NCBI GenBank assembly: GCA_963701095.1
Contig: OY969564.1
Span: 2,528,001-2,592,000, forward strand
Direction of reading: 5' to 3'
From: an uncultured Methanoregulaceae archaeon
GTDB lineage: Archaea; Halobacteriota; Methanomicrobia; Methanomicrobiales; Methanospirillaceae
Length of the DNA: 64,000 bases
A program made the position numbers and the translations under genes. The notes below the pieces were generated by a model. The model searched no databases and had not been told where the DNA came from. It was given only the letters and a program-made list of their open reading frames with translations. Numbering within the stretch: the stretch's first letter is position 1; the number at the start of each line of letters is the position of its first letter. This document shows positions 5,280 to 26,284 of the stretch, in pieces.

Positions 5280-7724
5280 TCAGGTCTGAGGCGCAGAGGC
5301 CAACCGGAATGCCTCCTTCGGTACAACCATTTCGAACCGCGCTCCTCTGCCCTGCTCGCCTGTTTCCCTGATCATTATAGCAGTAATATCAAGAATTTCC
5401 CGGGCAAGGAAGAGGCCCATACCGGTATTTCTTCCAAATCCCTGATCAAAAATTTTTTCCTTTTCATCAACAGGGATACCTAGACCGTCATCTTCGCAGA
5501 AAATGACCCGATTTCCATCGCGGTCTCCAACGGAGAACCGGATGGTTGTGACCCTGCCGCCATGCCGCACTGCATTGTCTATCAGATTGTAAAAGACCTT
5601 GTAGATCAGCGGATCGGCAAACACTTCCTCTGCAGCAGGAAGATCGTTTTTCACGAGGGTATCGCCTAAGAGAATATGCTTTTTTGCAGAATCGACAAGG
5701 ATATGGCAATTTTGCCATGCTGGTTCTGTAATCCCTATCTTTTCGTATTCTTTGGAAAACTGGATCATTGTATTAATACGCTGAGCAGCAAGGGTAACCT
5801 TCTTGAAATATTCATAGGATGAGGGATCCGGCAGTTGATCTTTTAGGAGTGAACTATATGCATTCAAGGTTAAAAGCTGGTTATTGATATCATGCCTGGT
5901 TATACTTGAAAGAAGATTGAGTTTTTTGTTTGCTTTAGAGAGTGCATCGCCAGTCAGTTTCCGCTCGGTGATATCCTCAATTTGGGCAGCAAAATAAAGC
6001 AATGTTCCTTGTCGATCGAGAATGGTAGTGATACGGAGCAATCCCCAGAGGATGCTTCCATCTTTCCTGATGTACCGTTTTTCTGTGCTGTATACCGGAA
6101 TTTTTCCTTCCACAAGATTCTGGATATATTGTAGATCACCGGGAAGATGATTCGGATGCGTGATATCTTTAAAGGAAAGGTCCATAAGTTCTTTTTCCGA
6201 ATATCCGGTCATGGCTATCCAGGCAGGGTTAACTGAAAAATAGTGGTAATCGGGAGTGATGAGCACCATGCCAACAGGACTGTTATGGAATATCTTACGG
6301 TATCGTTCTTCGCTCAGCCGAAGTTCCTGCTGGCTCTTATTCAGTTCATTGTAATTCTGCCGGAGTTCTTCTTCAGTCGCTGTAAGTTGCTCATAAGAAG
6401 CGTTCATTTCTTCGTTCATCGATTTCAGTTTCGCTTCAATTTCCATGCGCTCCGTTGTATCTCTTCCGACAGACTGGTATTCGATAACATGGCCATCAGC
6501 ATCAAAGGTTGCCCGGTCACTCCATTGTTGCCATCGCACCTCCCCGGAGGGCATAATGATCCGGTGGTCTAGAATTCCCACAGGATTCTCCGGGGAGAGG
6601 GCAGAAAGATGATCCTTCATCAAACGCAGATCTTCCGGAGGGATAACTACCGTATGATGAGATCCAATACATAAATTCTTGTCCAGACCAAAATACCGGC
6701 AGTATGCATCATTGACAAAGGTGAGCCTTCCGTCGACGGTAAACCGGCAAATAAATTCTGTCTGGTCTTCAACGACATTCCGGTACCGTTCCTCGCTCAA
6801 CCGTAGTTCCAGCTGGCCTTTGCTCATTTCTTCGTAATTCTGCCGGAGTTCCTCTTCAACTGTGGTCAATTCTTCAAATGCAGCATTGAGTTCCTCATTC
6901 TTGCGAAGCAGTTCATCTTCTGCCCGTTTGCGGTCAGTGATTTCCCGGATCGACTCAATTGCACCGACAACCGTACCCTTGGTATCGTAGAGCTGGGACG
7001 CAATGAACCAGAACGAGGCCCCTTTCCCGTTATTGAAATGAGGGATAGTAACCTCCGAAATGAGATTGTTTTGGTCCCTGATTACATTCTGATATTTTCC
7101 TGTGGTCACCGGGTCATTCTGGAGGACTAGATCGATCAGAACAGGACGCCGCTCACGGTAAAAGGGAAGCGCATATTCAAAATTGCCTTTTCCAAGGATT
7201 TGAGCTGCCCTGATGCCGGTCATCTTCTCCATTGCACGGTTCCATGCTATCACAAACCCGTAAGTGTCAATAGCAAAGGTTGCATCCGGAAGAAAGTTGA
7301 TGATATCGGCCTCTCTGCGCTTAAGATCCCTGATACTGATAACGGCTCTTCTCTGCTGGATCGACTGGCGGACCTTGTGTGCAAGTTCGGCAAACTGCGC
7401 TCTTGGCTCGCCGCCTTTCTGGATATAAAAGTCAGCCCCTTCATTTAATGCCTGAATAACAATCTCTTCCCGCCCTTTTCCTGTAAAAAGAATAAACGGG
7501 ATGGTATTTCCCGAAGATCTTACCATCTTTAAAAATTCTATACCGTCCATCTTTGGCATCTGGTAATCGGAGATGATTGCATCATAGTCACTTGTACTGA
7601 GAAGAGTAAGTGCATCAGGGATCGTTGTGACAATGTCGACGTTGAATTGTCCATTACATTCAAGGTAAAGTTTAGCTATTTCGAGAAGAGCTGGTTCATC
7701 GTCCACATAAAGAATTGTAAACAA
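5280..7724 (-). CDS. Hybrid REC-PAS histidine kinase
   Basis: N-terminal receiver (ILYVDDE, SDYQMP), three PAS domains, H-box ITRHDINNQL, NLIDNAVRHG, DDGLG, GMGLF. Confidence 0.93.
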   Translation of the reverse strand: MFTILYVDDEPALLEIAKLYLECNGQFNVDIVTTIPDALTLLSTSDYDAIISDYQMPKMDGIEFLKMVRSSGNTIPFILFTGKGREEIVIQALNEGADFYIQKGGEPRAQFAELAHKVRQSIQQRRAVISIRDLKRREADIINFLPDATFAIDTYGFVIAWNRAMEKMTGIRAAQILGKGNFEYALPFYRERRPVLIDLVLQNDPVTTGKYQNVIRDQNNLISEVTIPHFNNGKGASFWFIASQLYDTKGTVVGAIESIREITDRKRAEDELLRKNEELNAAFEELTTVEEELRQNYEEMSKGQLELRLSEERYRNVVEDQTEFICRFTVDGRLTFVNDAYCRYFGLDKNLCIGSHHTVVIPPEDLRLMKDHLSALSPENPVGILDHRIIMPSGEVRWQQWSDRATFDADGHVIEYQSVGRDTTERMEIEAKLKSMNEEMNASYEQLTATEEELRQNYNELNKSQQELRLSEERYRKIFHNSPVGMVLITPDYHYFSVNPAWIAMTGYSEKELMDLSFKDITHPNHLPGDLQYIQNLVEGKIPVYSTEKRYIRKDGSILWGLLRITTILDRQGTLLYFAAQIEDITERKLTGDALSKANKKLNLLSSITRHDINNQLLTLNAYSSLLKDQLPDPSSYEYFKKVTLAAQRINTMIQFSKEYEKIGITEPAWQNCHILVDSAKKHILLGDTLVKNDLPAAEEVFADPLIYKVFYNLIDNAVRHGGRVTTIRFSVGDRDGNRVIFCEDDGLGIPVDEKEKIFDQGFGRNTGMGLFLAREILDITAIMIRETGEQGRGARFEMVVPKEAFRLASAPQT

Positions 7725-7903: not shown

Positions 7904-7961
7904 TGCGAGGGATGGGATTCGAACCCAAGAACTCCTGCGAGACTAGGCCCTGAACCTAGCG
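7904..7961 (-). pseudogene. 3' portion of the split host tRNA-Leu(CAG); contains the left att core
   Basis: Minus strand reads cgctaggttCAGggcctagtctcgcaggagttcttgggttcgaatcccatccctcgca (anticodon arm, variable arm, T arm, acceptor 3' strand); 5' half absent. Confidence 0.92.
7945..7961. repeat. Left att core (17 bp) aggccctgaacctagcg
   Basis: Exact direct repeat of 15671-15687; spans the anticodon loop. Confidence 0.9.
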
Positions 7962-8002
7962 GTAAACAAAGGCACTATATCTTATGATGCAGATTAAGGA
8001 TC

Positions 8003-9164
8003 ATGGAAGATGTTTTGACAAAATACAAGCGGCTCGATCCGGTCAATCATCGGTATTTCGTTGATTATCTACGGTACCTCCAGCTTCGTAACATCCGGGA
8101 AACGACGATCACAACGAAACTCTGGAAGATCTACGGATACCTGATCTGGTCAGACTTCCGGGATGCGAAGACAGCACAACCGCAGGATCTCGAAAACTTC
8201 TATCTTCAGCGGAGAAAGGAGCGATCACCCATCACGGCATTTGGCGATATCCAAGAGCTCGCCCTGTTCTTCCGTTGGTTACTCCCGGACCGTGAGCTTG
8301 TCAAGTTCAAACCGCAGAAGCCCCGGGTCGATGTGCCGCCGGAAAAGGTCTTACAATCTGATAATATACGGGGAATACTGGAATACTGCGAGTCCCAGCG
8401 GGATCGTGCCCTGGTTGCCGTGGCATGGGACAGCGCGGCCCGGATCTCCGAGCTTCTCGATATCAATATCGGGCACGTCAACTTTGACCGGTACGGTGCG
8501 GTGATCAGCGTGAGTGGTAAGACCGGGCGCCGGAATATCCGGCTCGTGAGCTCAGGTACCGGACCTTCAAGCCTGGATCAATATCCACCCTCTCAAAGGC
8601 AACCCGGACGCCCCGCTCTTTGTCACCTCCCGGAGGCGTGGGAACACGTCTCTATCCCGGCTCACCGTGCGCCGGGTGCAGAACATCTTTGCCCGGCTGG
8701 GAGATCTTGCAGGTTGTCAAAAGGACACCAATCCCCACGCATTCCGGCACGGGCGTCTTACAATCCGGGGCAAGCAGCTTACCGAGTCCGAGCTCCGGGA
8801 GTATGCCGGATGGTCCAAAGGATCGAGCATGGCCCAGGTCTATGTGCATCTGTCCAGCCGGGATATCGACAATAAGATTCTGGCGGTGGATGGGGTCAAG
8901 CCGGAAGAAGAACCGGAGGCGGACCCGATGGCAGCGCAGATATGCCCCCGGTGCAAGAAATCGAACGCCCCGGACGCAATGTACTGCGACAGATGCAGCA
9001 TGGCCCTTAATGATGAAGCACTGGATAAGATCACCGCTCTACAAAATATCAATGAGGATCCGGACGCTCATGCGGAGTACGCGGTATGGCTGAAGGCTCT
9101 GAAAGACAATCCCGCTGGCCATTACGAGCGCCGGCAAGGCATGCGGAGTACGCGGTATGGCTGA
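8003..9164 (+). CDS. Tyrosine integrase with C-terminal zinc ribbon; +1 frameshift at ~8555
   Basis: Catalytic motifs SAARISE, GKTG, HAFRH, GW and QVYVH; CPRC..CDRC; removing one G at 8555/8556 joins ORFs 8003 and 8667 (RLVSS-VPDLQAWINIHP). Confidence 0.92.
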
Positions 9165-9177
9165 AGGCTCTGAAAGA
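9069..9177. repeat. Perfect 38-bp direct repeat x2 separated by a unique 33-bp insert
   Basis: catgcggagtacgcggtatggctgaaggctctgaaaga at 9069-9106 and 9140-9177; insert caatcccgctggccattacgagcgccggcaagg at 9107-9139. Confidence 0.95.
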
Positions 9178-9200
9178 GAAGCGGGGTTGATGGGGGATAT

Positions 9201-9782
9201 TCATCGCTTTTTCCGGTAAAATCTCCCGGATTCGTCCAGCTCATATTCCTTTTTAAACTCACGCCGCTCTTCTTCAGTATTCGCTGTTTTATAGACCTCT
9301 TTTCCCTTCTCAAGAACTATAAGCCTCCACGGCCCCTCATATTCGAGATATTCTTCCTTGTTTCGTGGGTGGAGGTCCTCGTATTCTTTTAATAATTTAT
9401 GATTTTTCAACACCTTTCTAGCGTCAAAAATTCTCTTTTCCTGTTCCACCCATTCCCTTGAGAGCGCCTCGCAGGCCATCTTGTACCCTTCTTCATAACT
9501 ACGGAATTCAAAGCGGGTAGGAGCCCCTTCCGGGAGCCGATACGTGGCGAGATTAGTACCTTTCCGGGTTTTCTTTTCAACGAGCCTTTCCTCTACAAGC
9601 TCTTTGAGCAGCCGGAACAGGGTAGCCTCTGGAATATCCGGATGTTTCAGATCCTTGGCCTTGCATCCCGGGTGATCGCGGATGAACGAGAGGATCCGGG
9701 GTATGTAATTTCCAACCTCTCCCCGCCGTCCGTTTTGAAACTTTATATACCGGTTGACCCATTCCAAGTCGATAGTTTCCAT
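9201..9782 (-). CDS. Winged-helix DNA-binding protein (candidate element repressor)
   Basis: RILSFIRDHPGCKAKDL..IPEATLFRLLKELVEERLVEKK wHTH pattern; divergent from the replication operon. Confidence 0.75.
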   Translation of the reverse strand: METIDLEWVNRYIKFQNGRRGEVGNYIPRILSFIRDHPGCKAKDLKHPDIPEATLFRLLKELVEERLVEKKTRKGTNLATYRLPEGAPTRFEFRSYEEGYKMACEALSREWVEQEKRIFDARKVLKNHKLLKEYEDLHPRNKEEYLEYEGPWRLIVLEKGKEVYKTANTEEERREFKKEYELDESGRFYRKKR

Positions 9783-9872
9783 AATTCAACGTCCTTATTA
9801 CTATCACTATGATATTATTTATGAGAGTTAATAACATTATGCCTACATAGAGAAAACCGGAGGAAAGCCTCA

Positions 9873-10019
9873 ATGAGAATTTGTTTAAATCTTCAAAAAG
9901 GACTCGTCGAACGAATCGATAAACAGCGTGGCGACATCCCACGCTCTCGGATTGTCGAACGGGCTCTTATGGAAAAGTATAGTGAAACTCCGGAAAAGGC
10001 AGTCGGGAGTGGTGAGTGA
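9873..10019 (+). CDS. 48-aa ribbon-helix-helix (CopG-like) protein, missing from the ORF track
   Basis: MRICLNLQKGLVERIDKQRGDIPRSRIVERALMEKYSETPEKAVGSGE; GGAGG at 9859-9863; TGATG coupling to the next ORF. Confidence 0.8.
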   Translation: MRICLNLQKGLVERIDKQRGDIPRSRIVERALMEKYSETPEKAVGSGE

Positions 10020-10222
10020 TGGTAGCTTCGCAGGCAGTCCAGCACGCCACCCCCGGTTTATCTTTCGATGCAGGATCACAAAAACCCGCGTTTACTCCTA
10101 TCCGAGTACCTCATGCCACCGTTGAAGCATACCGACGATCCGAACCATTGTTCACGGAATTTCTGATTGAATCCGGGCGGGTCATTGTTGAAGGAATGCC
10201 GAACCGGCCGGAGGGGTCCTGA
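10019..10222 (+). CDS. Hypothetical protein (67 aa)
   Basis: Start and stop overlap with both neighbours (TGATG). Confidence 0.65.
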   Translation: MVASQAVQHATPGLSFDAGSQKPAFTPIRVPHATVEAYRRSEPLFTEFLIESGRVIVEGMPNRPEGS

Positions 10223-10434
10223 TGAAGAAATGTAGCCAGCCCCGGGCAGGGCAGGCCAGAAAAGAATTGGACATGATTAGTTCAACTCGTCCAATATTAA
10301 ACTATTGCCCGGCCTGCTCTAGCGACGGCACTCTCTGTGGATATTATGAGACAGACCGATGCCCGCACCGCGGAGGAGCGTTGGAAGAACTCCATCGGAT
10401 CTTCACTGAAAAGAGGCTGGAGGATGAACCGTGA
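10222..10434 (+). CDS. Small Cys-rich hypothetical protein (70 aa)
   Basis: CPAC..C..CPH; GGAGG upstream; coupled to neighbours. Confidence 0.6.
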   Translation: MKKCSQPRAGQARKELDMISSTRPILNYCPACSSDGTLCGYYETDRCPHRGGALEELHRIFTEKRLEDEP

Positions 10435-10958
10435 CAGCCTACGACAACATCCCGGAACCGCTAGTAGGAGCCCGCCGCTGGGTAACGTTCCGGGTAATCC
10501 CGCAGCCAGACGGATCGTTAAAAAAGATCCCGCTGACCATCCGGGGATCGATGGCAAGATCCGACACACCGGGAGACTGGTGTACCTTATCAGAGGTTCG
10601 CCGGGCGATCCAATTCGACATTGGCAATGCCGCTGCATTTGCTCTAGGCGAAGACTATCCGCTCCGGGTACTGGACCTCGACCACTGCATCGATGACCGG
10701 GGGAACCTATCGCCTCTAGCAGTACAGATCGTCAGCCGGGCCGGGGATACCTACATCGAAAAATCAGTGTCCGGTCACGGTCTACACGTTCTCGTATGGC
10801 GGTCTGAAAATAATTATCCGACCAACCCGGTCCCGGGTCTTGAAATCTATGGTGGGGCTCCGAGGTTCATAATCATGACCGGGAACTTGTGGGGGCCGAT
10901 CCCAACCAGCGATCCGGAATTCAACCGACAACTGGCATACGCGGAGGCACGAACTTGA
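10431..10958 (+). CDS. Stand-alone AEP primase-polymerase catalytic domain
   Basis: KKIP, LDLDHC (DxD), EKSVSGHGLHV (SxSGxGxH) and EIY..RFIIMTG motifs of phage/plasmid prim-pol domains; GTG overlaps the upstream TGA, GGAGG at 10420. Confidence 0.85.
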   Translation: MTAYDNIPEPLVGARRWVTFRVIPQPDGSLKKIPLTIRGSMARSDTPGDWCTLSEVRRAIQFDIGNAAAFALGEDYPLRVLDLDHCIDDRGNLSPLAVQIVSRAGDTYIEKSVSGHGLHVLVWRSENNYPTNPVPGLEIYGGAPRFIIMTGNLWGPIPTSDPEFNRQLAYAEART

Positions 10959-12886
10959 CAGCTGCCGCAGAAAACCCGACCGAACCGGAATACCGGCTGT
11001 GTTGTGACGATGTGCCGGAAGAGCCTGAAGAACTGGACGTGATGGAAGAACCGGACGAGGAGCCGGAAGAACAGGAAGAATGGGAAGAACAGACAACGGC
11101 CGCCAAAGTCACCAGAAAGCCGGAACCGGCTGTAATAATCAATCACACTACACAGCCGGCTAAAGTGCCGCAGAAGCAATCCGTGAGGCCAACACCGGCA
11201 CCTGTGGTAAATTCAGAGGCCGACCCACTGACCGGATTCTTATCGTCCCTGTCACCGTCATGTAAAGCCGAGGCTGTGAAGTATTCAGAAATTCCCGATA
11301 GGGACCTCAAGATCCCGACCGGGCAGAGCGCGACGGCAATCCTTGCGACATTCTGCAAGAAGTACGCAACCGTCCCGAAAGGCCAACGGAACCACACACT
11401 GTTTAAGTTGTCCTGCACTCTTCGCCGGTGCGGGTATGAGGAAAAAGACATCCTCGCGGGACTGTGGCAATTCTCCCGGGAGCATTGCAAGCCCCCGCAC
11501 AAGCAGAGCGACCGGAGTGATGTTGAGGAACTCACGCAACTCTCCAGGAGGGCCGCCCGCCATGTGCGGCCGGGTTTTCCTGTCGAGAAGGTGAAAGGGG
11601 AGCACACAACTGTGGCGAATGTATCGAACCCAGCCCCCGCCGCGATTGATTTGGATCCATGCGGGATTGATCCGGGAAACATCACCGGGGAAGAGATCAA
11701 AGATCTGATGTTAAAAGGGTTTCAGGCGAACTCCGCTGATATCGGATCGAATGATTCCTCCCTAATTTGCCTGTTGTCTTACATTGGAGGGCGAGAACTT
11801 ACCGGAGACGGACTCCACCTGAAAGTGTCCGGGGAATCACAAGGGGGGAAATCGATCACGATTGGTGCCGGACTGAACTGTTTACCCCCAGAGGACATAT
11901 ATGCCGGGGCCTGCACGCCGAAAGCGCCGATTTACGACAGCAGCCTTCAATCTGGAATCATCATAAAAATTGACGAATCCCAAAAATTAGAACCGGAGTT
12001 CTTGGCACTGATGAAGGAATCAGTATCGACGTTTCAAACCCCGGTCCTGTATCGAACGGTTATTGATAAAAAAACCGTAGTTAAACAGATCCCGCCGCGG
12101 ATTACCTGGGTGTTTGTCTCTGTCGATTCTATCGGGGACGAACAGGTGTTAAATCGCCTCTTCCCCCTCGGAGTTGATAGTAAGGAAAAATATCAGAACG
12201 TCACGGACTTCAGGCTGAAACGTAGGGAGGACGGGATTTCGAAAAATGCTGTGACTGACGATGTACTGCGAATACGTGCCGCCCTCCGACACTATCGTGA
12301 CAACCGGTTTAGGGTTCTGGTCCCATTTGCGTCACGGATCCGGTATAAGTCGCAGGTCAAAAGAGACCAGAGACTTCAGGAGTTTTTCGAAAATTGTCTG
12401 ATCTATCATGCAGCGCTTTGCTACCGGGAGCGGACCCACGATACCGGATCTGATGGAGTAATCACAGTTGAAGCAACCGAAGATGATTTTTATGCGGTCC
12501 TGAAACTACGGATCTTTAACCGACCCACAGAGGCAACCAACCGATTGAGTCCGTCCGAAATCCAACTGATCAAGGATATCGTGGCAAAAGGCCTCAATGG
12601 AACCACGTACCCCATCCCGCGGCAGGATCTGCTCAAGGTGGGGGCCGGTTATTCACAATCCCGACTATCCAACATCCTTAGGGGTCGCAACGGTGAAGAC
12701 AACGGGCTCTTGTGCAAGATCCCGGGATTCACTGAGGTGCAGGCGTCAACCGCAAACCGGGACGATTTGTGCCGATTCACTGAAAGGGCATATATCATCC
12801 CGGCAGAAATTTCAGATCTGGTACCGTCCAACGAGGGTATCGATGACCAATGTCAATCAATAGCCTGCCTGATCCCTCACGCCTGA
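10955..12886 (+). CDS. Replication protein: acidic linker, PriCT-like domain, P-loop (AAA+/MCM-like) helicase, C-terminal wHTH-like region
   Basis: PKGQRNHTLFKLSCTLRRCG..HCKPP (PriCT-1-like); Walker A GESQGGKS; Walker B IIKIDE; LNRLF Arg-finger-like; TTG at 10955 overlaps the primase TGA, GGAGG at 10943. Confidence 0.8.
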   Translation: MTAAAENPTEPEYRLCCDDVPEEPEELDVMEEPDEEPEEQEEWEEQTTAAKVTRKPEPAVIINHTTQPAKVPQKQSVRPTPAPVVNSEADPLTGFLSSLSPSCKAEAVKYSEIPDRDLKIPTGQSATAILATFCKKYATVPKGQRNHTLFKLSCTLRRCGYEEKDILAGLWQFSREHCKPPHKQSDRSDVEELTQLSRRAARHVRPGFPVEKVKGEHTTVANVSNPAPAAIDLDPCGIDPGNITGEEIKDLMLKGFQANSADIGSNDSSLICLLSYIGGRELTGDGLHLKVSGESQGGKSITIGAGLNCLPPEDIYAGACTPKAPIYDSSLQSGIIIKIDESQKLEPEFLALMKESVSTFQTPVLYRTVIDKKTVVKQIPPRITWVFVSVDSIGDEQVLNRLFPLGVDSKEKYQNVTDFRLKRREDGISKNAVTDDVLRIRAALRHYRDNRFRVLVPFASRIRYKSQVKRDQRLQEFFENCLIYHAALCYRERTHDTGSDGVITVEATEDDFYAVLKLRIFNRPTEATNRLSPSEIQLIKDIVAKGLNGTTYPIPRQDLLKVGAGYSQSRLSNILRGRNGEDNGLLCKIPGFTEVQASTANRDDLCRFTERAYIIPAEISDLVPSNEGIDDQCQSIACLIPHA

Positions 12887-12894
12887 CCACGACG

Positions 12895-13170
12895 TCCATT
12901 ACACCGCTACACACCTTTTGGGAGAAAAGGTAAGAAAGCAACCGAGAATCCAAAAACGTTAAACAAACCCATTTAACTTTTTTCTCCTACCTTACCTTTT
13001 TTTAGAAACAGTGTGTAACATCCCTCATTTTTACGTCTGTATAGTAGTAGTGTGTAGTGGCTGTGAAATGGTGTGTATTATGCTCGGAGGCGTACTGTGT
13101 ATGGGCTGTGTAATATGCTCATCCATTTCACACCCATTTCACACCCACTACACAGCACTTTACACAGCCC
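12895..13170. repeat. Putative replication origin: TGTGTA/TACACA iteron-like motifs and inverted repeats
   Basis: Inverted pairs 13051-13071/13134-13154 (20 of 21 bp), 13103-13113/13160-13170 (11 of 11), 12925-12934/12991-13000 (10 of 10); directly after the helicase gene. Confidence 0.7.
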
Positions 13171-13844
13171 AGACCCCCCCGGAATCCCCCCAAGCTCCTT
13201 ACCTCGAGAGTAACTCCGACAGTAAGTCCAAAACCCTGTTCCTTGTCACGAGGAGAGCACCGACTGTAAAAAAGAACCTGCAAGAATAATAACAACTTCT
13301 AAATATTATCCATGGTAATAATCCCAAAAATACCAACCATCCGCAGACGCGATGACCCGGACCCTCCTCTACCCATAACCATCAATGTTTTTTCAAGCAC
13401 ATTCCAAAAATGGTATGCGTCTCAATTTTGGAGGTCAACCGGGCCGTAACCGGGTGATAATCGCTATACGGGCTCCGTTTGCCAAAAGTCCCGAGAGATA
13501 TTGCCCCGATTGATTCCTGGACCTGTGTCCAGGGTGCCGGGCAAAGCCCTTGGTAGCTGTGGTCCTGGTCCCGGGCCCTGCCGAGCGGTGCCCTCTCACG
13601 TCGAACTGTCGCAGAATAGTTGTTCTGCGCAATGTGACCCCTCTATATAGTGCACGTCGTAGCGTATGCATTGCGTAGAATAATGATGAATAATAGTGGG
13701 TGTACAAGTGCACTTGTTCTAGGTTCACATCCGGAAGATAGAGCGCGATATATGCCAAGACCCTCGTACAAAAATCCGGGAATTTTCACCTTTTTTAGGC
13801 CTACCCGCTTCTACAAAAATCTTAAAAAAATGGGTTTTGGGAGA

Positions 13845-14081
13845 TCAACCGCCGGTAATATTCCGGACTGCACCGGAGAGCCCAGTGGTCCCCCTGGCGA
13901 TCTGGTTTGTCACGTTCGAGTAGTCCCGGGCGGTATCCTGTTGGATGTGGGGGTTTGCTGCCGATTCATAAGCTCCGATCCCGACACAGACCACAAGCAG
14001 AGCCCCAAGAACCAAGGCAGCGATGACAATCAGGATAGAGACTGTGATCGCGACTTTCCCACAGAATGAAACCAGGCTCAT
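13845..14081 (-). CDS. Small membrane protein (78 aa)
   Basis: One long hydrophobic segment VAITVSILIVIAALVLGALLVVCVGIGA; SD-like GGTGA upstream. Confidence 0.7.
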   Translation of the reverse strand: MSLVSFCGKVAITVSILIVIAALVLGALLVVCVGIGAYESAANPHIQQDTARDYSNVTNQIARGTTGLSGAVRNITGG

Positions 14082-14159
14082 TCTCTCACCTTTTGTATGG
14101 TGCTTCTTCCTCCGAGGGGATAAAGGTTGTTTTTTCGCGGGCGTCAGGTCGTAGAAAAT

Positions 14160-14186
14160 GTGTTCAACCGGTTCACCGTGTTCACA
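14160..14186. promoter_or_regulatory. Three tandem 9-bp repeats (core GTTCA) between divergent genes
   Basis: gtgttcaac-cggttcacc-gtgttcaca; TATA-like TTTATAT at 14214-14220. Confidence 0.5.
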
Positions 14187-14247
14187 ACTGCATTTGTTTT
14201 AACTAAAGTAAAGTTTATATTGGATGGTGCAGTATAGACTATTCATT

Positions 14248-14415
14248 ATGAGAACCATCGTCAGAGGAGAGAAAACGTACTCCTTAACCTCCGTGGCAAT
14301 CCCTGCGGATTTGAAGGCCCGGGCACAGGATCACGATGTCAACATGACCCAGGTCTGTGTGAATGCACTTGAACGGGAAGTCGAACGTCTGGAGAAGGCA
14401 GGGGTGCCGGCATGA
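14248..14415 (+). CDS. RHH protein (CcdA/VapB antitoxin-like)
   Basis: TSVAIPADLKARAQDHDVNMTQVCVNALEREV; ATG ~28 bp after a TATA-like box. Confidence 0.75.
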   Translation: MRTIVRGEKTYSLTSVAIPADLKARAQDHDVNMTQVCVNALEREVERLEKAGVPA

Positions 14416-14585
14416 GATCTGAAGAGCCCCAGACCGCTTCCGATGTGTGGTCCATCGACCGCAAACGGCAGGCAGAGACAGCCCTCCGGGAAAACGAAGC
14501 GTACCAGCGCGGTATGCTTGAAGGAATGCGGAAGTTTAACAGTACCCTGTTGAACCCCGAAAACAATCAGGAGATGGTGCAGTAA
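14412..14585 (+). CDS. 57-aa hypothetical protein, missing from the ORF track
   Basis: MRSEEPQTASDVWSIDRKRQAETALRENEAYQRGMLEGMRKFNSTLLNPENNQEMVQ; ATGA overlap upstream, next ATG 1 bp after the stop. Confidence 0.65.
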   Translation: MRSEEPQTASDVWSIDRKRQAETALRENEAYQRGMLEGMRKFNSTLLNPENNQEMVQ

Positions 14586-14586
14586 T

Positions 14587-15159
14587 ATGGCCGTTTCCGA
14601 AATGCAGATCGAAATTCTGCTCCGGCCCGTCCTTGCCGAGATGGAAAGAGGTTTTTTTAAAGTCGCCGATAAGCTCCAGCGGGACCAACTGGCGATCAAT
14701 GTTCAGGAGATTGAGGCAGGGTTTAGGAACGGCCAAAAAGCAACCCTGGCACAATACGCGGGCCTCAAATACTACAAAGACGACGACCCCGAACTGCGGG
14801 GCCTTCCAAAAGGGAACCGTAATATGGAACGGGCAAAGTTCAATAAGGGTGTCCGTGATGTCCTGCGAGCGATCCGGTGGTACCGCAAGCACCCAAACGC
14901 AACCGAACGAGATCTAATCCAGCTCCGGCAGATACTGCGGGATTTCCCGTCGACTCTGGATATCCGGGCGATTCCGACACTGGTGATGTGGGGTGATGTA
15001 CTTACGATGCTATCACGGGCCCAGACCGATGCAAAATTCGATCTCGATATGGAGGAGGACGCAGCTGATGAGAATATTCTCAAACCCCGGCATCCCGGTT
15101 CAAACCCGGAGGACGACGTGATGATCCGCAAGACTGATTTCCCGGAGTTAGACCGATAA
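14587..15159 (+). CDS. Hypothetical protein (190 aa)
   Basis: Operon context with tight spacing; no recognisable motif. Confidence 0.7.
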   Translation: MAVSEMQIEILLRPVLAEMERGFFKVADKLQRDQLAINVQEIEAGFRNGQKATLAQYAGLKYYKDDDPELRGLPKGNRNMERAKFNKGVRDVLRAIRWYRKHPNATERDLIQLRQILRDFPSTLDIRAIPTLVMWGDVLTMLSRAQTDAKFDLDMEEDAADENILKPRHPGSNPEDDVMIRKTDFPELDR

Positions 15160-15269
15160 TGCCCGCAAAACCGATTCGGTGCAGACAATGCGGACGGGTG
15201 TTCGCGGACCGGATGACCTTAATCCTGCACAAACCCTGTAAGGGCGTACCAGTCAAAACCAAACCATGA
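15159..15269 (+). CDS. 36-aa C2HC/C2H2-type zinc-finger microprotein, missing from the ORF track
   Basis: MPAKPIRCRQCGRVFADRMTLILHKPCKGVPVKTKP (CxxC-x3-F-x5-L-x2-H-x2-C); TAATG coupling. Confidence 0.7.
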   Translation: MPAKPIRCRQCGRVFADRMTLILHKPCKGVPVKTKP

Positions 15270-15528
15270 CCGGGGGGGCGAGCGGGTTTGTCACATTTTC
15301 CCGCGATGAACCCCGTGCCATCAAACCCCGTTACTACATTTTTTACACTCCCTGGGGGGGAAATTACAACCCCCGGGGGAATCGTGCCTTTTACCACAAT
15401 TGACTACCACCAGCATCGACAGCGGCGCCTCATAGACGCGTTTGCGCGGCGTTTCTCGTGCCGGATAGGTAAAAGTATGTAACAAGTGGAAAAAAGGCCG
15501 GTCTTAAGAGAAACAAACTTCAGAAAAG

Positions 15529-15613
15529 TGCGAGGGATGGGATTCGAACCCAAGAACTCCTACGAGATTAGGCCCTGAACCTAACGCCTTTGACCTGGCT
15601 TGGCTACCCTCGC
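15529..15613 (-). tRNA. Complete tRNA-Leu(CAG), 85 nt, inside the element
   Basis: gcgagggtagccaagccaggtcaaaggcgttaggttCAGggcctaatctcgtaggagttcttgggttcgaatcccatccctcgca folds as a cloverleaf with a long variable arm; TTTATA ~42 bp upstream. Confidence 0.96.
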
Positions 15614-15670
15614 CCAACTCTTTTTTGAGGGATCTTGTTTTTGTGCGATGCAGCGTATAAACCCTGTCCA

Positions 15671-15714
15671 AGGCCCTGAACCTAGCGCCGTTGACCTGGC
15701 TTGGCTACCCTCGC
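15671..15714 (-). pseudogene. 5' portion of the split host tRNA-Leu(CAG); contains the right att core 15671-15687
   Basis: Minus strand reads gcgagggtagccaagccaggtcaacggcgctaggttCAGggcct then diverges; TATA-like TTTATTAAA at 15738-15746. Confidence 0.92.
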
Positions 15715-15775
15715 GCCTGTATAGATTACGCTCTTGGTTTAATAAAGGTAAGGGAATGGGGATTGTGGCCGGAAA

Positions 15776-17607
15776 CTACTGTGAGTTCTGACCGTTTGCA
15801 GCCCGTTTGAGTTCCCGCTCCCGTAGTTCAATTCTCCGGATTTTACCTGAGATGGTTTTGGGCAGGGAATCGACAAACTCGATTGCCCGGGGATATTTAT
15901 ACGGCGCTGTCACCTTTTTTACATGACTCTGGAGATCCCGGACCAGAGCATCTGACGGACTAAACCCGGGTTTTAAGATCACAAACGCCTTGACGATCAA
16001 GCCCCGGATGTCATCGGGGGAACCAACAACTGCTGCCTCCTGGACAGAAGGATGCTCAATAAGAGCGCTTTCCACTTCGAACGGACCGATACGGTAACCC
16101 GAAGCTTTGATCACGTCATCGTCACGGCCGATGAACCAAAAATAACCGTCTTCATCCTTATACGCCTTGTCGCCAGTGTAGTACCAACCATTCACAAACG
16201 ATTTCTTGTTCTCTTCGGGATTGTTGATATACTCGGTAAACATGCCGACCGGCCACGGATCAAGCTTGATCGCAATTCTTCCCTCTTCATGGCCTCCTAC
16301 CGGGTTCCCGTGCTCATCATGAAGTTCGATTATCCACCCGGTGCTGGTTTTCCCATAGCCCCAAAACGCGCCTCCATACAGGGAAATGTCCCGATACACA
16401 GTACAGTTTCGGTCTGGCCGTAGCCTTCGTAGATGGTCAGGCCGGTTGCGTCCTTCCAGGCTTTGATAACCTCGGGGTTGAGAGGCTCGCCGGCACTTAC
16501 GCAGTGGCGGAGTTCGGAGAAGTCAAACTTGTCAAGATCGGCGAGGATCAGCATCCGGTAGATAGTAGGGGGGCAGCAGAATGTCGATATGCCGTACCGT
16601 TCGATCAGCGGCAGGAGTTCGGTCGCGTTAAACCGGCCCCGGATATCGTAAACGAAAATGGCAGTCCCCTCAAGCCACGGGCCGTAGAGTTTCCCCCATG
16701 CACTTTTTCCCCAACCGGTATCAGAAAAGGTGAAATGGAGGTCGTTCTGGCGGACATCGTGCCAGAACCGGGAGGTCACCATATGACCAAGTGCATAGCT
16801 CTGACTGTGCAGCACCATCTTTGCTTCCCCGGTAGTCCCTGAAGTAAAGAAGATGAGCATTGGATCGGTAGCTTTGGTTCTTTTCATACCGGGAAGGTTA
16901 ACCAGTTTTGCCGAGACCGGTGCCGGGTAGTCGAGTTCAACTGGGTAACTGATCCATCCGGATCTTTTGCCATCAATGAGGAAGCGGCAGGTCAGGGAAG
17001 GGCACTGGCTTGCAATAGCATCAATTTTATCTGCAAATTCTTCGGACGTGATCACCATCTTGATATCAGCCGCGTTAATCCGGTACTTCAGGTCGTGTTC
17101 GGTAAGCATGGTCGGGGCCGGGCAGTAGACCGCTCCGCGTTTAATGAGGGCAATAGTGGCAATCCACCACTCCGGTACCCGGGGCAGCATAATGAGAACA
17201 CGGTCGCCTTTGTTCACACCGTACTTGATAAGCATATTAACGACCTGGTTGGAGAGACGCATCAGGTCCCAGAATGTGTATTTCTTTTCGTCGCCTTTCT
17301 GGTTCGTCCAGATCATGGCAAGCTTGTTCCTGTCTTTCTTTGCCCATGCGTCAATAACATCAAAACCGAAGTTGAAGTACTCGGGAACCTCGATATGGAA
17401 ATCTCGGTAGGTAGCGTCGTAATCGCGCATGTTCGGCCCGGGTGCTCCGGTATCCGGAAGGGTACATGCGAGGCTGGATGTATTTGTAGTCAGGTGACCG
17501 GAACAAGCCTCTGCAATCCAGTCAGAACGCGAAATCTTCCGATGTTCACAGACCTTATCGATACTACTTGTCAGGGTATCGTCCATGGAAATTGAATACC
17601 GCACCAT
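15776..17607 (-). CDS. Acyl-CoA synthetase (AMP-forming) with N-terminal RHH domain; frameshift at ~16338
   Basis: FFTSGTTGEAK, EGYGQTE, GRDDDVIK and LPKTISGKIRR motifs; N-terminus MVRYSISMDDTLTSSIDKVCEHRKISRSDWIAEAC; one missing base joins GKPAPG-WIIELHD. Confidence 0.9.
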
Positions 17608-17736
17608 ACATTTCGTTTTGTTGGTGCACTTTATCAGTATTTTGCTTTTCTCATGAACCAAAATATCATATGGTGCTATTTTCTGGTGCTCTCAACTAAA
17701 AAATGCTAAAACTAAAAGAGATTGAAAAAGTGATTC

Positions 17737-19403
17737 TCACCGGAGTTCGCGGTGTTTCCGCAATTCCTGTTCCCTAAGCTCGGCACGCCGGATTTTACCG
17801 GAATGGGTCTTAGGAAGTTCGGTGACAAACTCAATTGCCCGGGGTACTTGTAAGGTGCCGTGGTGCGCTTGACATAGTTCTTGATCTCTCTGATGAGTGT
17901 CTCTGAGGGTTCATAACCCTCTTTGAGGACAACAAACGCTTTCACGATTAAACCCCGAAGCCGGTCCGGTGCACCCACGACTGCGGCTTCCTGGACTGCT
18001 GGATGCTCGATAAGTGCGCTTTCCACTTCAAACGGGCCGATCCGGTAGCCGGACGATTTTATTACATCGTCGTCCCGACCTACGAACCAGAAAAACCCGT
18101 CTTCATCTGCATAAGCCTTGTCCCCGGTATAGTACCAGCCATTCACAAACGATTTTTTGTTTTCTTCAGGATTGTCCACGTATTCTACAAAAAGACCGGG
18201 TGGTGGCGGGGTACAGGAAATGGCAATCCTGCCCTCCTCGCGGATTTTTACCGGTTTTCCATCATCATCATGGATCTCCACGTCCCAGCAGGGTGAGGGT
18301 TTTCCCATTGAACCCGGTCTTAACTCAAGACAGGGAAATTCGGCAACACAGCAGCAGGTCTCGCTCTGGCCGTATCCTTCCCGGATAGCAAGGCCCGTCC
18401 CTTCCCGCCAGACACGGATCACCTCAGGGTTGAGGGGTTCGCCGGCACTTGTACAGTGTCGCAGTGACGAGAGATCGAATTTATCGAGATCGGCAAGGAT
18501 CAGCATACGGTAGATAGTTGGTGGGGCACAGAATGTGGTGATCTGGTACCGTTCAAGCAGCGGAAGTATCTCGGTAGCATTGAACTTTCCAATAAAATTA
18601 TAGACAAAGAGACAGGCTCCTTCAATCCACTGGCCAAAGATTTTTCCCCACCCGCATTTTGCCCAACCAGTATCCGTGACCGTAAAATGCAGGTCGTTAT
18701 GCCGGATGTCCTGCCAGAACCGGGCGGTAACAATCTGTCCGAGCGGATGGTCGTGGTTATGAATTACCATCTTTGGCTCTCCTACCGTCCCGGAAGTAAA
18801 ATAGATCAGCATCGGATCAGAACTTTTCGTGCGATTTTCATCAGGAATGCTCACGGAATGATGAGAAACCGGGGCCGGGTACAACAACTCGTAGGGCCAG
18901 CTTGCCCAGCCTTTGATTTCCGCATCAACCACAAACCGGCAGGAAAGGGTGGGGCACTCGTTGCAGATCTCTTCGACCTTACCGGAATTCTCCAGGTCGG
19001 TGATGATCATCCGGAATTTTCCTTTGTTTACCCGGTACTTGATATCCCGTGAGGTTAGCATGGTGGGACAGGGACAAAAGACCGCGCCAAGCTTGATGAG
19101 TGCGACGACGAAGATCCACCATTCGGGTATCCGGGGGAGCATGATGAGCACACGGTCTCCCTTGTTAATCCCGTACTTCAAAAGAACGTTTGCTGCCTGA
19201 TTGGAAAGATTTGACATATCCAGAAAACTGAACTTTTTCTCTTCGCCCTTCTGGTTTGCCCAGATCATGGCAAGTTTGTTCCGGTCCTTTCGGGCCCAGG
19301 CATCGACTACATCGAAGCCAAAATTGTAATATTCGGGAACATCGATGGTAAAAGTCGCCTTTGTCTTTTCGTAATCTTCCATATTATGCCGGTCTTCACC
19401 CAT
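17737..19403 (-). CDS. Acyl-CoA synthetase paralog; frameshift at ~17842
   Basis: YFTSGTVGEPK and EGYGQSE motifs; adding one C restores [23 protein letters not shown] with stop at 17737. Confidence 0.9.
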
Positions 19404-19597
19404 GCAATCCACCTGGATAATTGCGAAAATATTAATGGTACTTCCTTTTCAATCTGTCTTTTGGATGTTTCCGGAGAATTCTTGGCAGCACAACCCCGGA
19501 TTTTTTGTCCATTTTCCAGTCTAACGTCAGAGAAGAATCAGGGGACATAAAGGTTCGCCATTAGTATTATGATTCGATACACTTCATAGTATACAGG

Positions 19598-25285: not shown

Positions 25286-26284
25286 TTAATACTTCCGCCT
25301 CATTGCAAAAGCAAACCCTGCTACACCTAGGCCAAAGATTGCACTATATTCAGGCAACGGAGAATAGGTAGTCTTTTTCGGTATTACTGTTGCTGTTGGC
25401 AAAACGGTTGATGGCACCGTCGTAATAACTGTCGCAGTTGCGGCTGGCGTAGCCATAGTCGGCTGAACCGTTGTTGGTATTGCGTAAGCGGGAACAGTAA
25501 ACGTGATTGTTTTATCGCCACTAGTTACGTTTCCTATTGCTGTCAAACCCGGGTAACTAGGACTCATGCCGTTGAGATTCTGGGAGACCTCAAAGGTATA
25601 CGTCCCCGCCGGATATACCCTGCTTCCATCTGTGGATATCGCATTGCGGTTCCAGGACGGGCCATATGGCCATATATACGGCGAGGATGATATGACCGGA
25701 TTGCTATTGAACGGGAGGATCTGAGTTGTTGGGTTTCCCACGTTTCCTGTGAAGATATGGGGAATATTACCTCCCGATGGAGAAGTAAGGGTGACTGTGT
25801 AAAAAATGTCAGAAGGATTGGCATTGGGACGTGTTGAATAATTAGCCATCCACAGGTTTGTATCGATATGATAGGTCACGTTCGTGGACATCGGTACCGT
25901 CTGGCCGGTGATATCTGTGTTGGTATCTACATTCCATATTGAGAGATTGATCTGGGGTTGGTAAACGACAAAGACCGGGACATTAGGTTTTGTATCATAG
26001 GAATACCATGTGCCGGTATATCCGGTAAAAATAGCCGGATCTACATAAAACGATGTTTGTCTCCCAGTTACCGTTACCGTTTGAGAAGGACTTGTGCTCA
26101 TGTCAGACCCTGGCGGCCACCAGGCAATAACCGAATGGCCGTTCAACGCTGCCGTGATATCAAGGTTGTGTTCACCAATAAAAACCGGTGCATCGGAAAC
26201 GATCTTCCCAAGGCTTGCATTTGCAGGAGCCAGGATAAGAACCATAAGCATGAGAAAAACAAGGCAAATTCGATTGGATAACAT
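25286..26284 (-). CDS. DUF3821-like cell-surface protein
   Basis: Signal peptide, VFIGEHNLDIT motif, Thr-rich linker, TYSPLP plus TM plus RRK sorting-type tail. Confidence 0.8.
   Translation of the reverse strand: MLSNRICLVFLMLMVLILAPANASLGKIVSDAPVFIGEHNLDITAALNGHSVIAWWPPGSDMSTSPSQTVTVTGRQTSFYVDPAIFTGYTGTWYSYDTKPNVPVFVVYQPQINLSIWNVDTNTDITGQTVPMSTNVTYHIDTNLWMANYSTRPNANPSDIFYTVTLTSPSGGNIPHIFTGNVGNPTTQILPFNSNPVISSSPYIWPYGPSWNRNAISTDGSRVYPAGTYTFEVSQNLNGMSPSYPGLTAIGNVTSGDKTITFTVPAYAIPTTVQPTMATPAATATVITTVPSTVLPTATVIPKKTTYSPLPEYSAIFGLGVAGFAFAMRRKY

Follow-up and report, generated by a model that had tools for sequence, protein, structure and literature searches.

The window analysed here, a 64,000-nucleotide stretch of archaeal DNA, contains E1, an integrative, plasmid-like element that lies in a tRNA-Leu(CAG) gene of a Methanoregula chromosome and measures 7,726 bp (7962-15670 plus one copy of the core). 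Our analysis confirmed that this 7.7-kb mobile element of a methanogen cuts its target in the anticodon loop, leaves it unrestored and brings along a complete copy of its own (Table 1).

Table 1. Features of E1 and its integration site, in window positions.
Feature	Position	Strand	Basis
Host tRNA-Leu(CAG) 3' fragment, anticodon stem-loop to discriminator	7904..7961	-	Integrase-proximal junction; tRNA homology stops at 7961
Left core copy, 17 bp	7945..7961	.	Sequence; joint in X7 contig
Element arm, core to integrase start, 41 bp	7962..8002	.	Conserved between E1 and E2
Tyrosine integrase with C-terminal zinc ribbon	8003..9164	+	PF00589 in both pieces
Small protein, possible regulator	9201..9782	-	Weak helix-turn-helix matches (HTH_IclR, MarR_2; E ~0.007), below cut-offs
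Replication protein, primase-polymerase N-terminus and PriCT-1	10431..12886	+	ORFs 10431-10958 and 10889-12886
Small ORF, borderline CcdA antitoxin-like	14224..14415	+	PF07362, 2e-04; 22.1 bits (cut-off, 22.4)
Complete cargo tRNA-Leu(CAG)	15529..15613	-	ARAGORN, Rfam; inside X7 junction contig
Spacer/element arm, 57 bp, complete tRNA to right core	15614..15670	-	Sequence
Host tRNA-Leu(CAG) 5' fragment, including right core copy (15671-15687)	15671..15714	-	Sequence; right flank of relatives

A sequence-only reading of this DNA had recognised three tRNA-Leu pieces, a 17-bp core common to the outer two and a 57-bp spacer, and each lies where it had been placed. The core, AGGCCCTGAACCTAGCG, is an exact 17-mer at 7945-7961 and 15671-15687; it spans two bases ahead of the anticodon stem, that stem's 5' strand, the 7-nt loop and, from the 3' strand, 3 nt. 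The bases adjoining it differ on both sides, and the element sequence flanking it on either side is not tRNA. The sole tRNA called in the window is the minus-strand tRNA-Leu(CAG) at 15528/15529-15613 (ARAGORN; Rfam tRNA, 48.7 bits, E 1.1e-07); no complete tRNA was found at either junction, 7904-7961 or 15671-15714, by ARAGORN, Rfam or inspection of the sequence, which bears out the earlier view that neither rebuilds the host gene. When joined by script, the outer fragments yield an 85-nt tRNA-Leu(CAG) that differs from the complete one at exactly four positions (15589, 15584, 15568 and 15562), reproducing the differences first seen by eye, with 15584 and 15568 as the two sides of one compensatory anticodon-stem change, C-G in the host and U-A in the cargo. 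The marks of the cargo allele are U27-A43, A at 15589 and U at 15562. The 5' fragment remains behind the host tRNA promoter region. The spacer holds TTTATA on the tRNA strand (15661-15656), a candidate promoter and the TATA-like box earlier ascribed to the complete tRNA, as well as a CCCTCAAAAAA motif just upstream of the cargo; both motifs are kept in E2, a second copy in the same genome, and in five other elements of the same type.

The arm between core and integrase, whose counterparts in other family members are AT-rich, probably holds the integrase promoter. The best PDB relative of the integrase is XerA-like (4a8e, 2e-15), and SAM-like N-terminal matches occur only in a relative, P0002. 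We rejected its identification as archaeal XerA, the enzyme of chromosome dimer resolution: scores of 76.8 and 113.2 bits against NF040815, with an equivalog cut-off of 220, mark it as related to XerA and not XerA itself. One extra G near 8555 breaks the E1 integrase of the assembly into two reading frames (8003-8875 and 8667-9164), which might make this copy immobile; against the E2 integrase (P0001; PF00589, 1.6e-14), an intact, continuous 371-aa ORF, E1 shows a 1-bp indel at 8555. Because the extra base is absent from the contigs of all four runs compared, and because two other 1-bp differences recur in four of four runs (the assembly departs from short-read contigs by indels at 8555, 13326 and 15157), the comparison points to an assembly error rather than a real frameshift. 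The first ORF of the replication protein matches PHROG DNA primase families (4e-23) and the second PriCT_1 (1.8e-07). Pfam and PHROGs detected no virion proteins in E1, recognisable ORFs being a minority of its ORFs; L068, a 33-kb relative, has PCNA and methylases and no recognised capsid gene.

E2 (C1:315938-324000) has the identical layout in a tRNA-Leu(GAG) gene: both fragments read GAG, as does the cargo, and the cargos of E1 and E2 differ only at anticodon base 34 (G in E2, C in E1). At the E2 site, 8 of 13 relatives' loci match the joined E2 allele at every base, and another 2 depart from it by 2 and 5 bases; the cargo allele occurs in two (G049 and G003), and no tRNA was seen in one. 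Within the genus, a pattern scan of 108 genomes for a 5' fragment, a spacer and a complete tRNA-Leu found 14 sites, spread over 13 genomes, with none for the reversed-pattern control. A chance origin is rejected, given this recurrence of the architecture and the homology of the fragments as halves of a tRNA. At all 14 sites the anticodon of the fragment is that of the downstream tRNA (GAG, 7; CAG, 5; UAG, 2).

The layout outlasts the similarity of the elements that carry it. The element in G008 (CAG) shares no DNA similarity with E1 outside the tRNA, and its integrase is 42% identical to P0001; that in G041 has the same layout with UAG as target, and the cargos of these two have one common body, differing almost only in the inner anticodon arm. 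Two Methanolobus genomes (G044, G042) and a Methanococcoides genome (G043) have the same integrase family and layout, also targeting UAG, with matching anticodons in all three. Unintegrated loci L067 (CAG), L068 (GAG) and L081 (UAA) each present the integrase, an isolated loop core, the spacer and then a cargo tRNA of the same anticodon; the spacer of L068 is identical to that of the integrated copy L053/G090, as is its cargo over the first 40 nt, which is as far as the truncated L053/G090 contig reaches. The attP core is 17 bp in E1 and 10-18 bp in relatives, and the cargo tRNA lies 53-100 bp from attP. Upstream sequence is available for 37 integrase loci: in 33 the integrase adjoins a junction in the anticodon loop of a host tRNA-Leu, three are the unintegrated loci just named, and one shows no such junction. 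All five leucine anticodons occur among these loci; the far ends of CAA-targeting and integrated UAA-targeting elements fall outside the data, and cargo for these anticodons is known only from unintegrated L081 (UAA). The integrase tree requires 8 changes of target. Splitting and replacing a tRNA is therefore no one-off, and is the standard design of this integrase and element family in methanogenic archaea.

The sequence-only reading had suggested possible host reliance on the cargo gene for as long as E1 is integrated. One part of this stands: a search of the genome for other Leu(CAG) genes found the cargo alone, making it the only tRNA-Leu(CAG) here. For the CAG isoacceptor, however, the need for compensation is not strict: G072, a 99% complete genome, has a split CAG gene and a decayed cargo (its T arm is lost), and no other intact CAG copy was found there; tRNA-Leu(UAG), which is present in the E1 genome, can read CUG by general wobble rules. 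From the sequence we infer that the cargo is expressed and that the host may depend on it.

The seeming dispensability of tRNA-Leu(CAG) in G072 would also suit a reading in which the split is as described and the cargo serves another end: the element's own codon usage, resistance to a tRNA-cleaving defence, or nothing at all, if it is a host gene captured passively. Several decayed cargo-like tRNA-Leu relics in this genome fit such a reading, and phage tRNAs have been proposed to act against tRNA-degrading defences (PMC10865867). We nevertheless consider it unlikely, as the cargo has the anticodon of the target in 14 of 14 cases in the genus, 3 of 3 in Methanosarcinales and 3 of 3 unintegrated loci, over four anticodons and several unrelated tRNA bodies, and keeps its position beside attP even where the rest of the element is without similarity.

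Relatives were used to reconstruct the site before integration, as anchored by the right flank and the tRNA only, the left flank not being syntenic. The right flank of relatives runs straight on from the 5' fragment (15671-15714), and at 10 of 11 loci it adjoins one intact tRNA-Leu(CAG), with a host-type body in all 10; the eleventh is taken by a different element of the same design. Letter for letter, the joined fragments are the tRNA at the same site (L007) in a Methanoregula relative, G018, with which the 3' fragment (7904-7961) shares 100% identity over 60 nt. The predicted empty site carrying the outer-fragment allele exists, in L007; the 57-bp spacer is absent at the empty sites, and none of the 11 loci carries the cargo allele (15529-15613), which would have spoken against the proposal. 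Mobility is seen in run X7, from another study, where depth is 0-0.8 on the flanks and 7-18 on the element. A 332-nt X7 metagenome contig joins 15523-15670 to 7945-8067, going back 7726, with 17 letters that fit either side; this is the junction across one core that the sequence-only reading had proposed to look for, and it includes the complete tRNA, where a circle excluding it would have spoken against the proposal. In these Logan contigs a free circle and a head-to-tail tandem look alike; either way, the cargo tRNA runs on through spacer and core into the integrase side in DNA other than this chromosome, so the tRNA travels together with its element.

These data bear directly on classical integration, in which a host 5' half and an element-borne 3' half would together have re-formed the host gene as the complete tRNA now seen. 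This is the mode of nearly all described tRNA-targeting elements (PMC8371274), and the 3' fragment is 96% identical over 55 nt to the 3' part of the complete tRNA. The reading implies a 58-bp imperfect direct repeat (7904-7961 against 15529-15586) and leaves 15671-15714 as an unrelated older relic. However, the host flank of relatives adjoins the position of the 5' fragment and not the complete tRNA, the spacer is missing from empty sites, and the 5' half of the complete tRNA has a non-host allele. In addition, the X7 contig and the three unintegrated loci group the complete tRNA, spacer and isolated core beside the integrase, and the cargos of G008 and G041 are plainly foreign along their whole length. 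We regard classical restoration as very improbable.

A functional split tRNA gene, with halves transcribed apart and joined through complementary leader and trailer as in Nanoarchaeum, has precedent in archaea, where mobile-element integration has been proposed as an origin (PMC3293823), but is scarcely credible here, as an entire gene with that anticodon exists beside the halves and the 41 nt after the 5' fragment have no complementarity to the 41 nt before the 3' fragment (cofold -13.6 kcal/mol, against -13.9 +/- 2.9 for 200 shuffles). An assembly artefact or local duplication could be suspected from the indel differences, several split genes and 86% completeness of a single contig from an indel-prone long-read assembly, but the architecture recurs in 12 further genomes from the genus, in Methanolobus and Methanococcoides genomes from isolates and in metagenome contigs, which leaves it next to no credence.

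We conclude that tRNA-compensated integration is very probably the best explanation of E1; it is carried by the architecture, the empty site, a tRNA that moves along with its element, recurrence and matched anticodons, all directly observed. The tyrosine integrase would recombine a minimal attP, an isolated anticodon loop with a few stem bases, with the host gene, and the presumed cleavage positions would most likely leave the 7-nt anticodon loop as the overlap region. Because this attP carries neither tRNA half, the host gene is left as two dead fragments. The complete tRNA-Leu of the same anticodon, 57 bp from attP, would then replace the lost decoding function. The integrated cargo lies directly downstream of the orphaned 5' fragment and in the same orientation, so that its own TATA-like box could drive it, and perhaps the host tRNA promoter as well; it would presumably be expressed and charged, and may bring a fitness benefit. 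Precise excision would restore the host gene. The integrase family would retarget among leucine isoacceptors as the attP loop changes, and the anticodon of the cargo with it.

The sequence-only reading was right that replacement by a cargo tRNA is known from phages: tRNA-dependent lysogeny has been described for the actinobacteriophages Fionnbharth/K4, cluster L, Gaia and the Gordonia CQ2/DL phages (Guerrero-Bustamante & Hatfull 2024, PMC10865867), with the requirement of integrants for the phage tRNA proven by genetics. Judged by its sequences, the E1 family is an archaeal counterpart of this strategy, for which proof so far exists only in some bacterial viruses. In both, a tyrosine integrase uses an attB that falls in the anticodon loop of a tRNA gene, no tRNA is rebuilt because the common core is too short (8-17 bp in the phages, 10-18 bp in the archaeal elements), and target and cargo switch together between close relatives, BrutonGaster and OneUp there (PMC10865867), E1 and E2 here. 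The hosts differ, Bacteria there and Archaea here, as do the integrases, which are lambda-like with an arm-binding domain in the phages and XerA-like with a C-terminal zinc ribbon in our family. Whereas the phage tRNA lies elsewhere in the genome (PMC10865867), the archaeal cargo is physically coupled to attP and always lands just downstream of the orphaned 5' half. The carriers here include a 7.7-kb plasmid-like element with no virion genes detected, and one family spans all five leucine isoacceptors. The Lactobacillus johnsonii prophage Lj965, a bacterial case, likewise encodes a cognate tRNA where the junction does not rebuild the target (according to PMC10865867).

Classical archaeal integrases (pNOB8-type, pT26-2, SNJ2 and pTN3-like enzymes targeting the 5' half) are also tyrosine recombinases with tRNA targets, and the anticodon loop is their likely overlap region, as shown for the SSV1 integrase according to a review (PMC8371274). 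In those systems the missing tRNA part in attP restores the gene, "for all integration events" in the words of that source (PMC8371274), whereas neither junction is restored here. SSV-type 'suicidal' integrases belong to archaeal elements that insert at tRNA genes as well, but their attP lies inside the integrase ORF, which integration splits; here attP lies 41 bp upstream and the E2 ORF is whole. Our literature searches found no description of tRNA-compensated integration in archaea, and the sequence-only reading had known of none either.

More tentatively, integrase, mini-attP (a bare mimic of the anticodon loop) and adjacent tRNA-Leu might form one portable, self-compensating and retargetable cassette, common to plasmid-like and virus-like backbones that are themselves unrelated and come from at least two methanogen orders. 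Retargeting would then need only matched changes in two copies of the loop, in attP and cargo; as these are direct repeats about 90-100 bp apart, they might stay matched through short-patch gene conversion or through exchange mediated by the integrase. The cargo would land behind the host tRNA promoter and, as integrated copies decay, the foreign tRNA would stay in place of the native one. Two side observations hint at such replacement: the relic cargo-like tRNA-Leu pseudogenes of this genome, and a 5' fragment with a cargo-type allele in G082. A trick proven for some bacterial viruses is now seen as a family-wide design in methanogenic archaea; if the cassette reading is true, these elements would steadily drive both the replacement of tRNA-Leu genes and their horizontal transfer in archaeal genomes.

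The split tRNA-Leu(CAG) gene and its complete copy are confirmed: ARAGORN, Rfam, the raw sequence and a scripted join bore out every detail given in the sequence-only reading, namely three tRNA-Leu pieces, a 17-bp core, an 85-nt join, a 57-bp spacer and four differences. The only tRNA that ARAGORN called in the window is the complete tRNA-Leu(CAG) at 15528-15613 on the minus strand, whose boundaries the Rfam tRNA model places at 15529-15613 (48.7 bits). Both outer pieces contain the 17-mer AGGCCCTGAACCTAGCG (7945-7961 and 15671-15687), with unlike neighbouring bases on either side of it, and the spacer (15614-15670) separates the complete gene from the right core. Once fused, the outer pieces mismatch the complete gene at 15589, 15584, 15568 and 15562, and 15584 and 15568 are partners in one anticodon-stem pair. 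The interpretation of this arrangement as tRNA-compensated integration, in which the element (E1) breaks the host gene and supplies a complete replacement (the cargo), is supported.

An empty site in relatives should carry the allele of the outer fragments. We queried 40 relatives with the 5' fragment plus the right flank and ran ARAGORN on the 11 relatives' loci that were fetched. One intact tRNA-Leu(CAG) abuts the right flank directly at 10 of these 11 loci, always with a host-type body (CAACGG..., ...TCTCGCAGG), and at one of them (L007, in genome G018) it equals the joined outer fragments in every letter. The cargo allele, the outcome named as refuting, occupies the relatives' CAG site at 0 of 11 loci; the eleventh (in genome G008) holds a different element of like design. 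Because the left flank is non-syntenic in these species, the empty site is anchored on the right flank and the tRNA only.

Public sequencing runs showed that the tRNA travels with the element. Parts of the region are covered by 18 runs from six studies, none of those listed being an RNA run, and four of these were examined, as contigs. Run X7 belongs to another study than the best-covering run does; its element depth is 7-18 and its flank depth 0-0.8. A 332-nt X7 contig reads 15523-15670 and then 7945-8067, a backward jump of 7726 with 17 letters that fit either side. This joint is the predicted attP junction, running from the cargo tRNA through the spacer and a single core to the integrase side, as the sequence-only reading had anticipated. 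It represents a free circle or a head-to-tail tandem, the contigs being compatible with both. Excision circles that exclude the complete tRNA had been proposed as a refutation; this is answered because the X7 junction includes the complete tRNA, circle or tandem alike. A joint in run X5 from 7943 to 15523 (side 31, between: not known) was regarded as an artefact of the repeated tRNA 3' part. A joint in run X2 from 15613 to 15736 with 21 other letters (depth 2.3, side 21) could be the empty site of a related strain and is too weak to use.

E1 has a G+C content of 0.50-0.56 across its interval, versus 0.43-0.47 in the left flank. Beyond the tabulated genes it has several unmatched ORFs; Pfam and PHROGs recognised no virion protein in it, and a scan of IMG/VR viral contigs with the integrase alignment returned no relative. 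Host genes flank it: those on the left encode PAS sensor kinases, and those directly right of the tRNA site (15776-19412) encode AMP-forming acyl-CoA synthetases in tandem, which are conserved beside tRNA-Leu(CAG) across the genus. An extra G near 8555 breaks the E1 integrase frame relative to that of E2, a second element in the same genome. This G is absent from the contigs of all four runs examined, and 1-bp differences from short-read contigs at 13326 and 15157 likewise recur in four of four; an assembly error is the probable cause of the frameshift. Overlapping split ORFs occur in the integrase, the primase (10889-10958) and the acyl-CoA synthetase (16330-16399), and the genome, a single contig of 86% completeness, probably carries indel errors. 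R147, K173, H245, R248, W270 and Y280 are among the residues invariant between the two integrases compared, and we take them to fit the tyrosine recombinase catalytic set.

Features of the split tRNA gene, of elements E1 and E2 and of the G072 loci (plain ranges are window positions; G000 is the source genome and G072 a relative)
Feature	Location	Details
tRNA-Leu 3' part	7904-7961	raw sequence
tRNA-Leu 5' part	15671-15714	raw sequence
Tyrosine integrase (E1)	8003-9164	start 41 bp from left core; PF00589, C-terminal zinc ribbon
Protein with weak HTH match (E1)		
Primase-polymerase/PriCT-1 replication protein (E1)	10431-10958 + 10889-12886	split; Pfam, PHROGs
ORF with borderline CcdA-like match (E1)		
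Element E2	G000:C1:315938-324000	locus L013
Decayed cargo site in G072	G072:C27:2881-3020	locus L052
Further G072 locus cited with CAG loss	G072:C4:~2036-2094	locus L100

E2, brought out by a whole-genome BLAST with the tRNA and by region alignment, has the order 3' fragment, integrase, diverged middle, complete tRNA-Leu, 57-bp spacer and 5' fragment. Its integrase (P0001) is intact at 371 aa, with DNA 94.5% identical to that of E1. GAG replaces CAG in all three E2 tRNA pieces, and anticodon base 34 is the sole difference between the two cargos. Because the body of the E1 cargo is of the genus GAG gene type (CAAAGG, TCTCGTAGG), unlike the genus CAG gene, this cargo looks, from its sequence, like a GAG-type tRNA whose anticodon switched when the attP loop switched. 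Among 13 relatives' loci at the E2 site, the joined E2 allele is exact in eight; L035 and L046 hold an intact host-type tRNA-Leu(GAG) 2 and 5 bases from it; G049 and G003 are occupied and carry the cargo allele; and one locus yielded no tRNA. Elsewhere in the source genome, a second tRNA-Leu(GAG) at C1:187357-187441 adjoins tRNA-Ser and has a cargo-type anticodon stem (TTAGG/CCTAA) with a weakened T stem; it may be a leftover cargo gene without its surrounding element. Decayed pseudogenes resembling the cargo tRNA-Leu, together with orphan 5' fragments, lie at C1:371585-371662, 1070261-1070333, 1099828-1099877 and 171873-171900; two of the four are preceded by spacer motifs of the E1/E2 family, and they are probably relics of older integrations.

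The design recurs in unrelated DNA. The G008 locus (L014) comprises a 5' fragment, a 53-bp spacer, a foreign complete tRNA-Leu(CAG), 7.6 kb, an integrase and a 3' fragment; the 7.6-kb interior has zero similarity to E1, the integrase is 42% identical to P0001 and the core is AGGTTCAGGG. G041 repeats this arrangement in tRNA-Leu(UAG); its UAG cargo has the foreign body of the G008 cargo, and the differences between these two cargos are almost confined to the inner anticodon arm. We scanned 108 genomes of the genus for a host 5' part followed, after 55-85 nt, by the beginning of another tRNA-Leu. The pattern matched 14 sites in 13 genomes, one with its cargo cut by a contig end and one with it decayed; the reversed control gave 0. 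Fragment and downstream tRNA share their anticodon at 14 of 14 sites (GAG at seven, CAG at five, UAG at two). The 5' strand of the anticodon stem differs between cargo and host fragment at 12 of the 14, and we rejected the idea that changed outer stem pairs universally protect the cargo from self-targeting. That the cargo always copies the inner anticodon stem of its target was also rejected, as the cargos of L050, L052 and L025 combine a GGA/TCC stem with a CAG anticodon. At L048 (G082:C1:1979062-1979181) the orphaned 5' fragment itself has TTAGG, a stem of cargo type; this may reflect insertion of an element into cargo left by an earlier one, a serial replacement, or the host's native allele may simply be of cargo type.

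Searching a genome collection with the integrase alignment gave 13 loci, distributed over Methanoregula, Methanoregulaceae, Methanolobus, Methanococcoides and Methanoperedens. Both ends were located in two Methanolobus genomes (G044, G042) and one of Methanococcoides (G043), each with a tRNA-Leu(UAG) 5' fragment, a spacer of ~100 bp holding a local promoter motif copy, a complete UAG cargo and, 14.6, 42 and 22.8 kb away, respectively, an integrase and 3' fragment; their core is 13-15 bp, AGGGCTTAGGACC. Isolates of Methanolobus vulcani, M. bombayensis and Methanococcoides alaskense are among the carriers of the UAG-type element. In Methanococcoides alaskense, a gene resembling tRNA-Leu(UAG) that has lost an internal segment spanning the anticodon region (L021 ~6221-6330; G043:C10:~25821-25893) lies 3.6 kb from the element junction and may be the scar of an imprecise event. 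Methanococcoides and Methanolobus genomes also contain tandem tRNA-Leu arrays, each of two to four near-identical genes at spacings of 158-166 bp (G045:C5:112827-113409, G044:C1:1143235-1143477 and G042:C5:96487-96737).

A search of metagenome contigs gave 37 loci, three of them unintegrated forms. Taking all integrase loci with upstream sequence, also 37 in number, a host tRNA-Leu anticodon-loop junction lies 50-110 bp from the integrase start in 33; three of the remaining four are the unintegrated forms and one (L028) showed none. The unintegrated forms consist of an integrase, an AT-rich arm, a lone anticodon loop with 2-3 flanking bases, a spacer and a complete tRNA-Leu, and in each the loop matches the cargo anticodon (L067 CAG, L068 GAG, L081 UAA). 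The spacer and first 40 nt of cargo, as far as the cut contig of L053 reaches, are identical between L068 and the integrated L053 (G090). The 33-kb L068 contig encodes PCNA, three DNA methylase ORFs and a long same-strand run of unknown ORFs, and may be a virus. A minimal family member, L025 (9084-13377), has only ~4.3 kb between junctions including integrase and cargo tRNA. All five leucine anticodons are targeted across the 37 loci, with CAA or UAA as the target at L069-L077, L080, L090 and L092, and the integration target of the integrase module appears to follow the anticodon loop. A maximum-likelihood tree of 37 integrases required 8 target changes, against a minimum of 4 and a shuffled mean of 21.5, and shows only repeated retargeting, because kin share target labels. 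To ask whether some fragment-spacer-tRNA sites are relics lacking an element, we compared the sequence following the complete tRNA at 13 sites with the downstream flanks of 12 empty sites. This gave no matches and had no power, because downstream flanks are not conserved between species.

Among explanations other than tRNA-compensated integration, retention of the cargo tRNA for reasons besides compensation is improbable, as it leaves the perfect anticodon matching without explanation. That the fragments form a functional split tRNA gene is not supported, because their cofold energy equals that of shuffles. Classical restoration of the tRNA through a 58-bp imperfect repeat is contradicted by flank adjacency in relatives, by the 57-bp spacer, by a cargo whose 5' half is foreign, by the X7 junction and by the unintegrated forms. 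Recurrence of the architecture in other genomes excludes an assembly artefact.

In tRNA-compensated integration, then, attP is a short lone copy of the anticodon loop region without either tRNA half, and the target is left split. A complete tRNA-Leu with the matching anticodon lies 53-100 bp from attP, and integration sets this cargo immediately behind the orphaned 5' half, both pointing the same way. Given how tyrosine recombinases generally work, and by analogy with the part of a review describing the anticodon loop as the SSV1 integrase overlap (PMC8371274), we infer that the 7-nt anticodon loop is the overlap region, which would explain why the attP loop must equal the target anticodon loop. 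Selection against losing a leucine isoacceptor would keep the cargo anticodon matched. The cargo may be transcribed from its own TATA-like box (TTTATA, 15661-15656). Transcription from the host tRNA promoter is a further possible route, since the tRNA strand has no oligo-T run on the way from that promoter to the cargo. If excision is precise it would restore the host gene, so that dependence on the cargo would last only during integration.

The suggestion that the host relies on the cargo held in part. ARAGORN called 48 tRNAs in the whole genome, and with BLAST it left the E1 cargo as the only credible tRNA-Leu(CAG), a further call at 2214249 not being tRNA-like; CUG makes up ~20% of leucine codons in a crude count over 901 long ORFs. 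Against strict reliance, the source genome retains tRNA-Leu(UAG), and G072 (99% complete, 30 contigs) has a split CAG gene and a decayed cargo that lacks its T arm, with no intact near match except the GAG gene. From G072 the CAG isoacceptor seems dispensable, and compensation likely matters more for GAG and UAG targets.

The mechanism of E1 matches tRNA-dependent lysogeny as set out in the available text of a 2024 paper, which describes such integration in actinobacteriophages only and there mentions archaea nowhere (PMC10865867). Titles among the listed matches for that phrase include no archaeal case, and we found no archaeal description of tRNA-compensated integration in the literature within reach, largely main texts from outside the subscription journals. 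In the accessible part of a review of archaeal tyrosine recombinases, an uninterrupted tRNA gene is restored "for all integration events" (PMC8371274), a restoration that the E1/E2 family, in contrast, does not perform. The Caldiarchaeum tRNA-Thr case was rejected as the same mechanism, since the relevant passages describe classical 5'-part integration with the gene rebuilt (PMC3293823), and the Methanolobus and tRNA passages of Roux et al. 2019 on a Methanolobus inovirus hold nothing on tRNA replacement (PMC6813254).

The E1/E2 family is the first family-level archaeal case of tRNA-compensated integration that we could find; what is new relative to the known system is a distinct integrase lineage, a cassette in which attP and tRNA are closely linked, and retargeting that spans all five leucine isoacceptors. 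The family breaks the stated rule that tRNA genes are always restored, and extends the concept into Archaea, to integrases of an unrelated lineage and to elements of plasmid-like type. Island finders that seek a rebuilt tRNA and a displaced 3' fragment will misplace the ends of these elements and take the cargo for a host gene. The compact module of integrase, 10-18-bp core and tRNA could be the basis of integration vectors for methanogens, among them Methanolobus, Methanococcoides and possibly Methanosarcina; for mycobacteria, Hatfull's phage plasmids reportedly serve as such vectors. The tRNA gene sets of methanogens may be partly element-borne.
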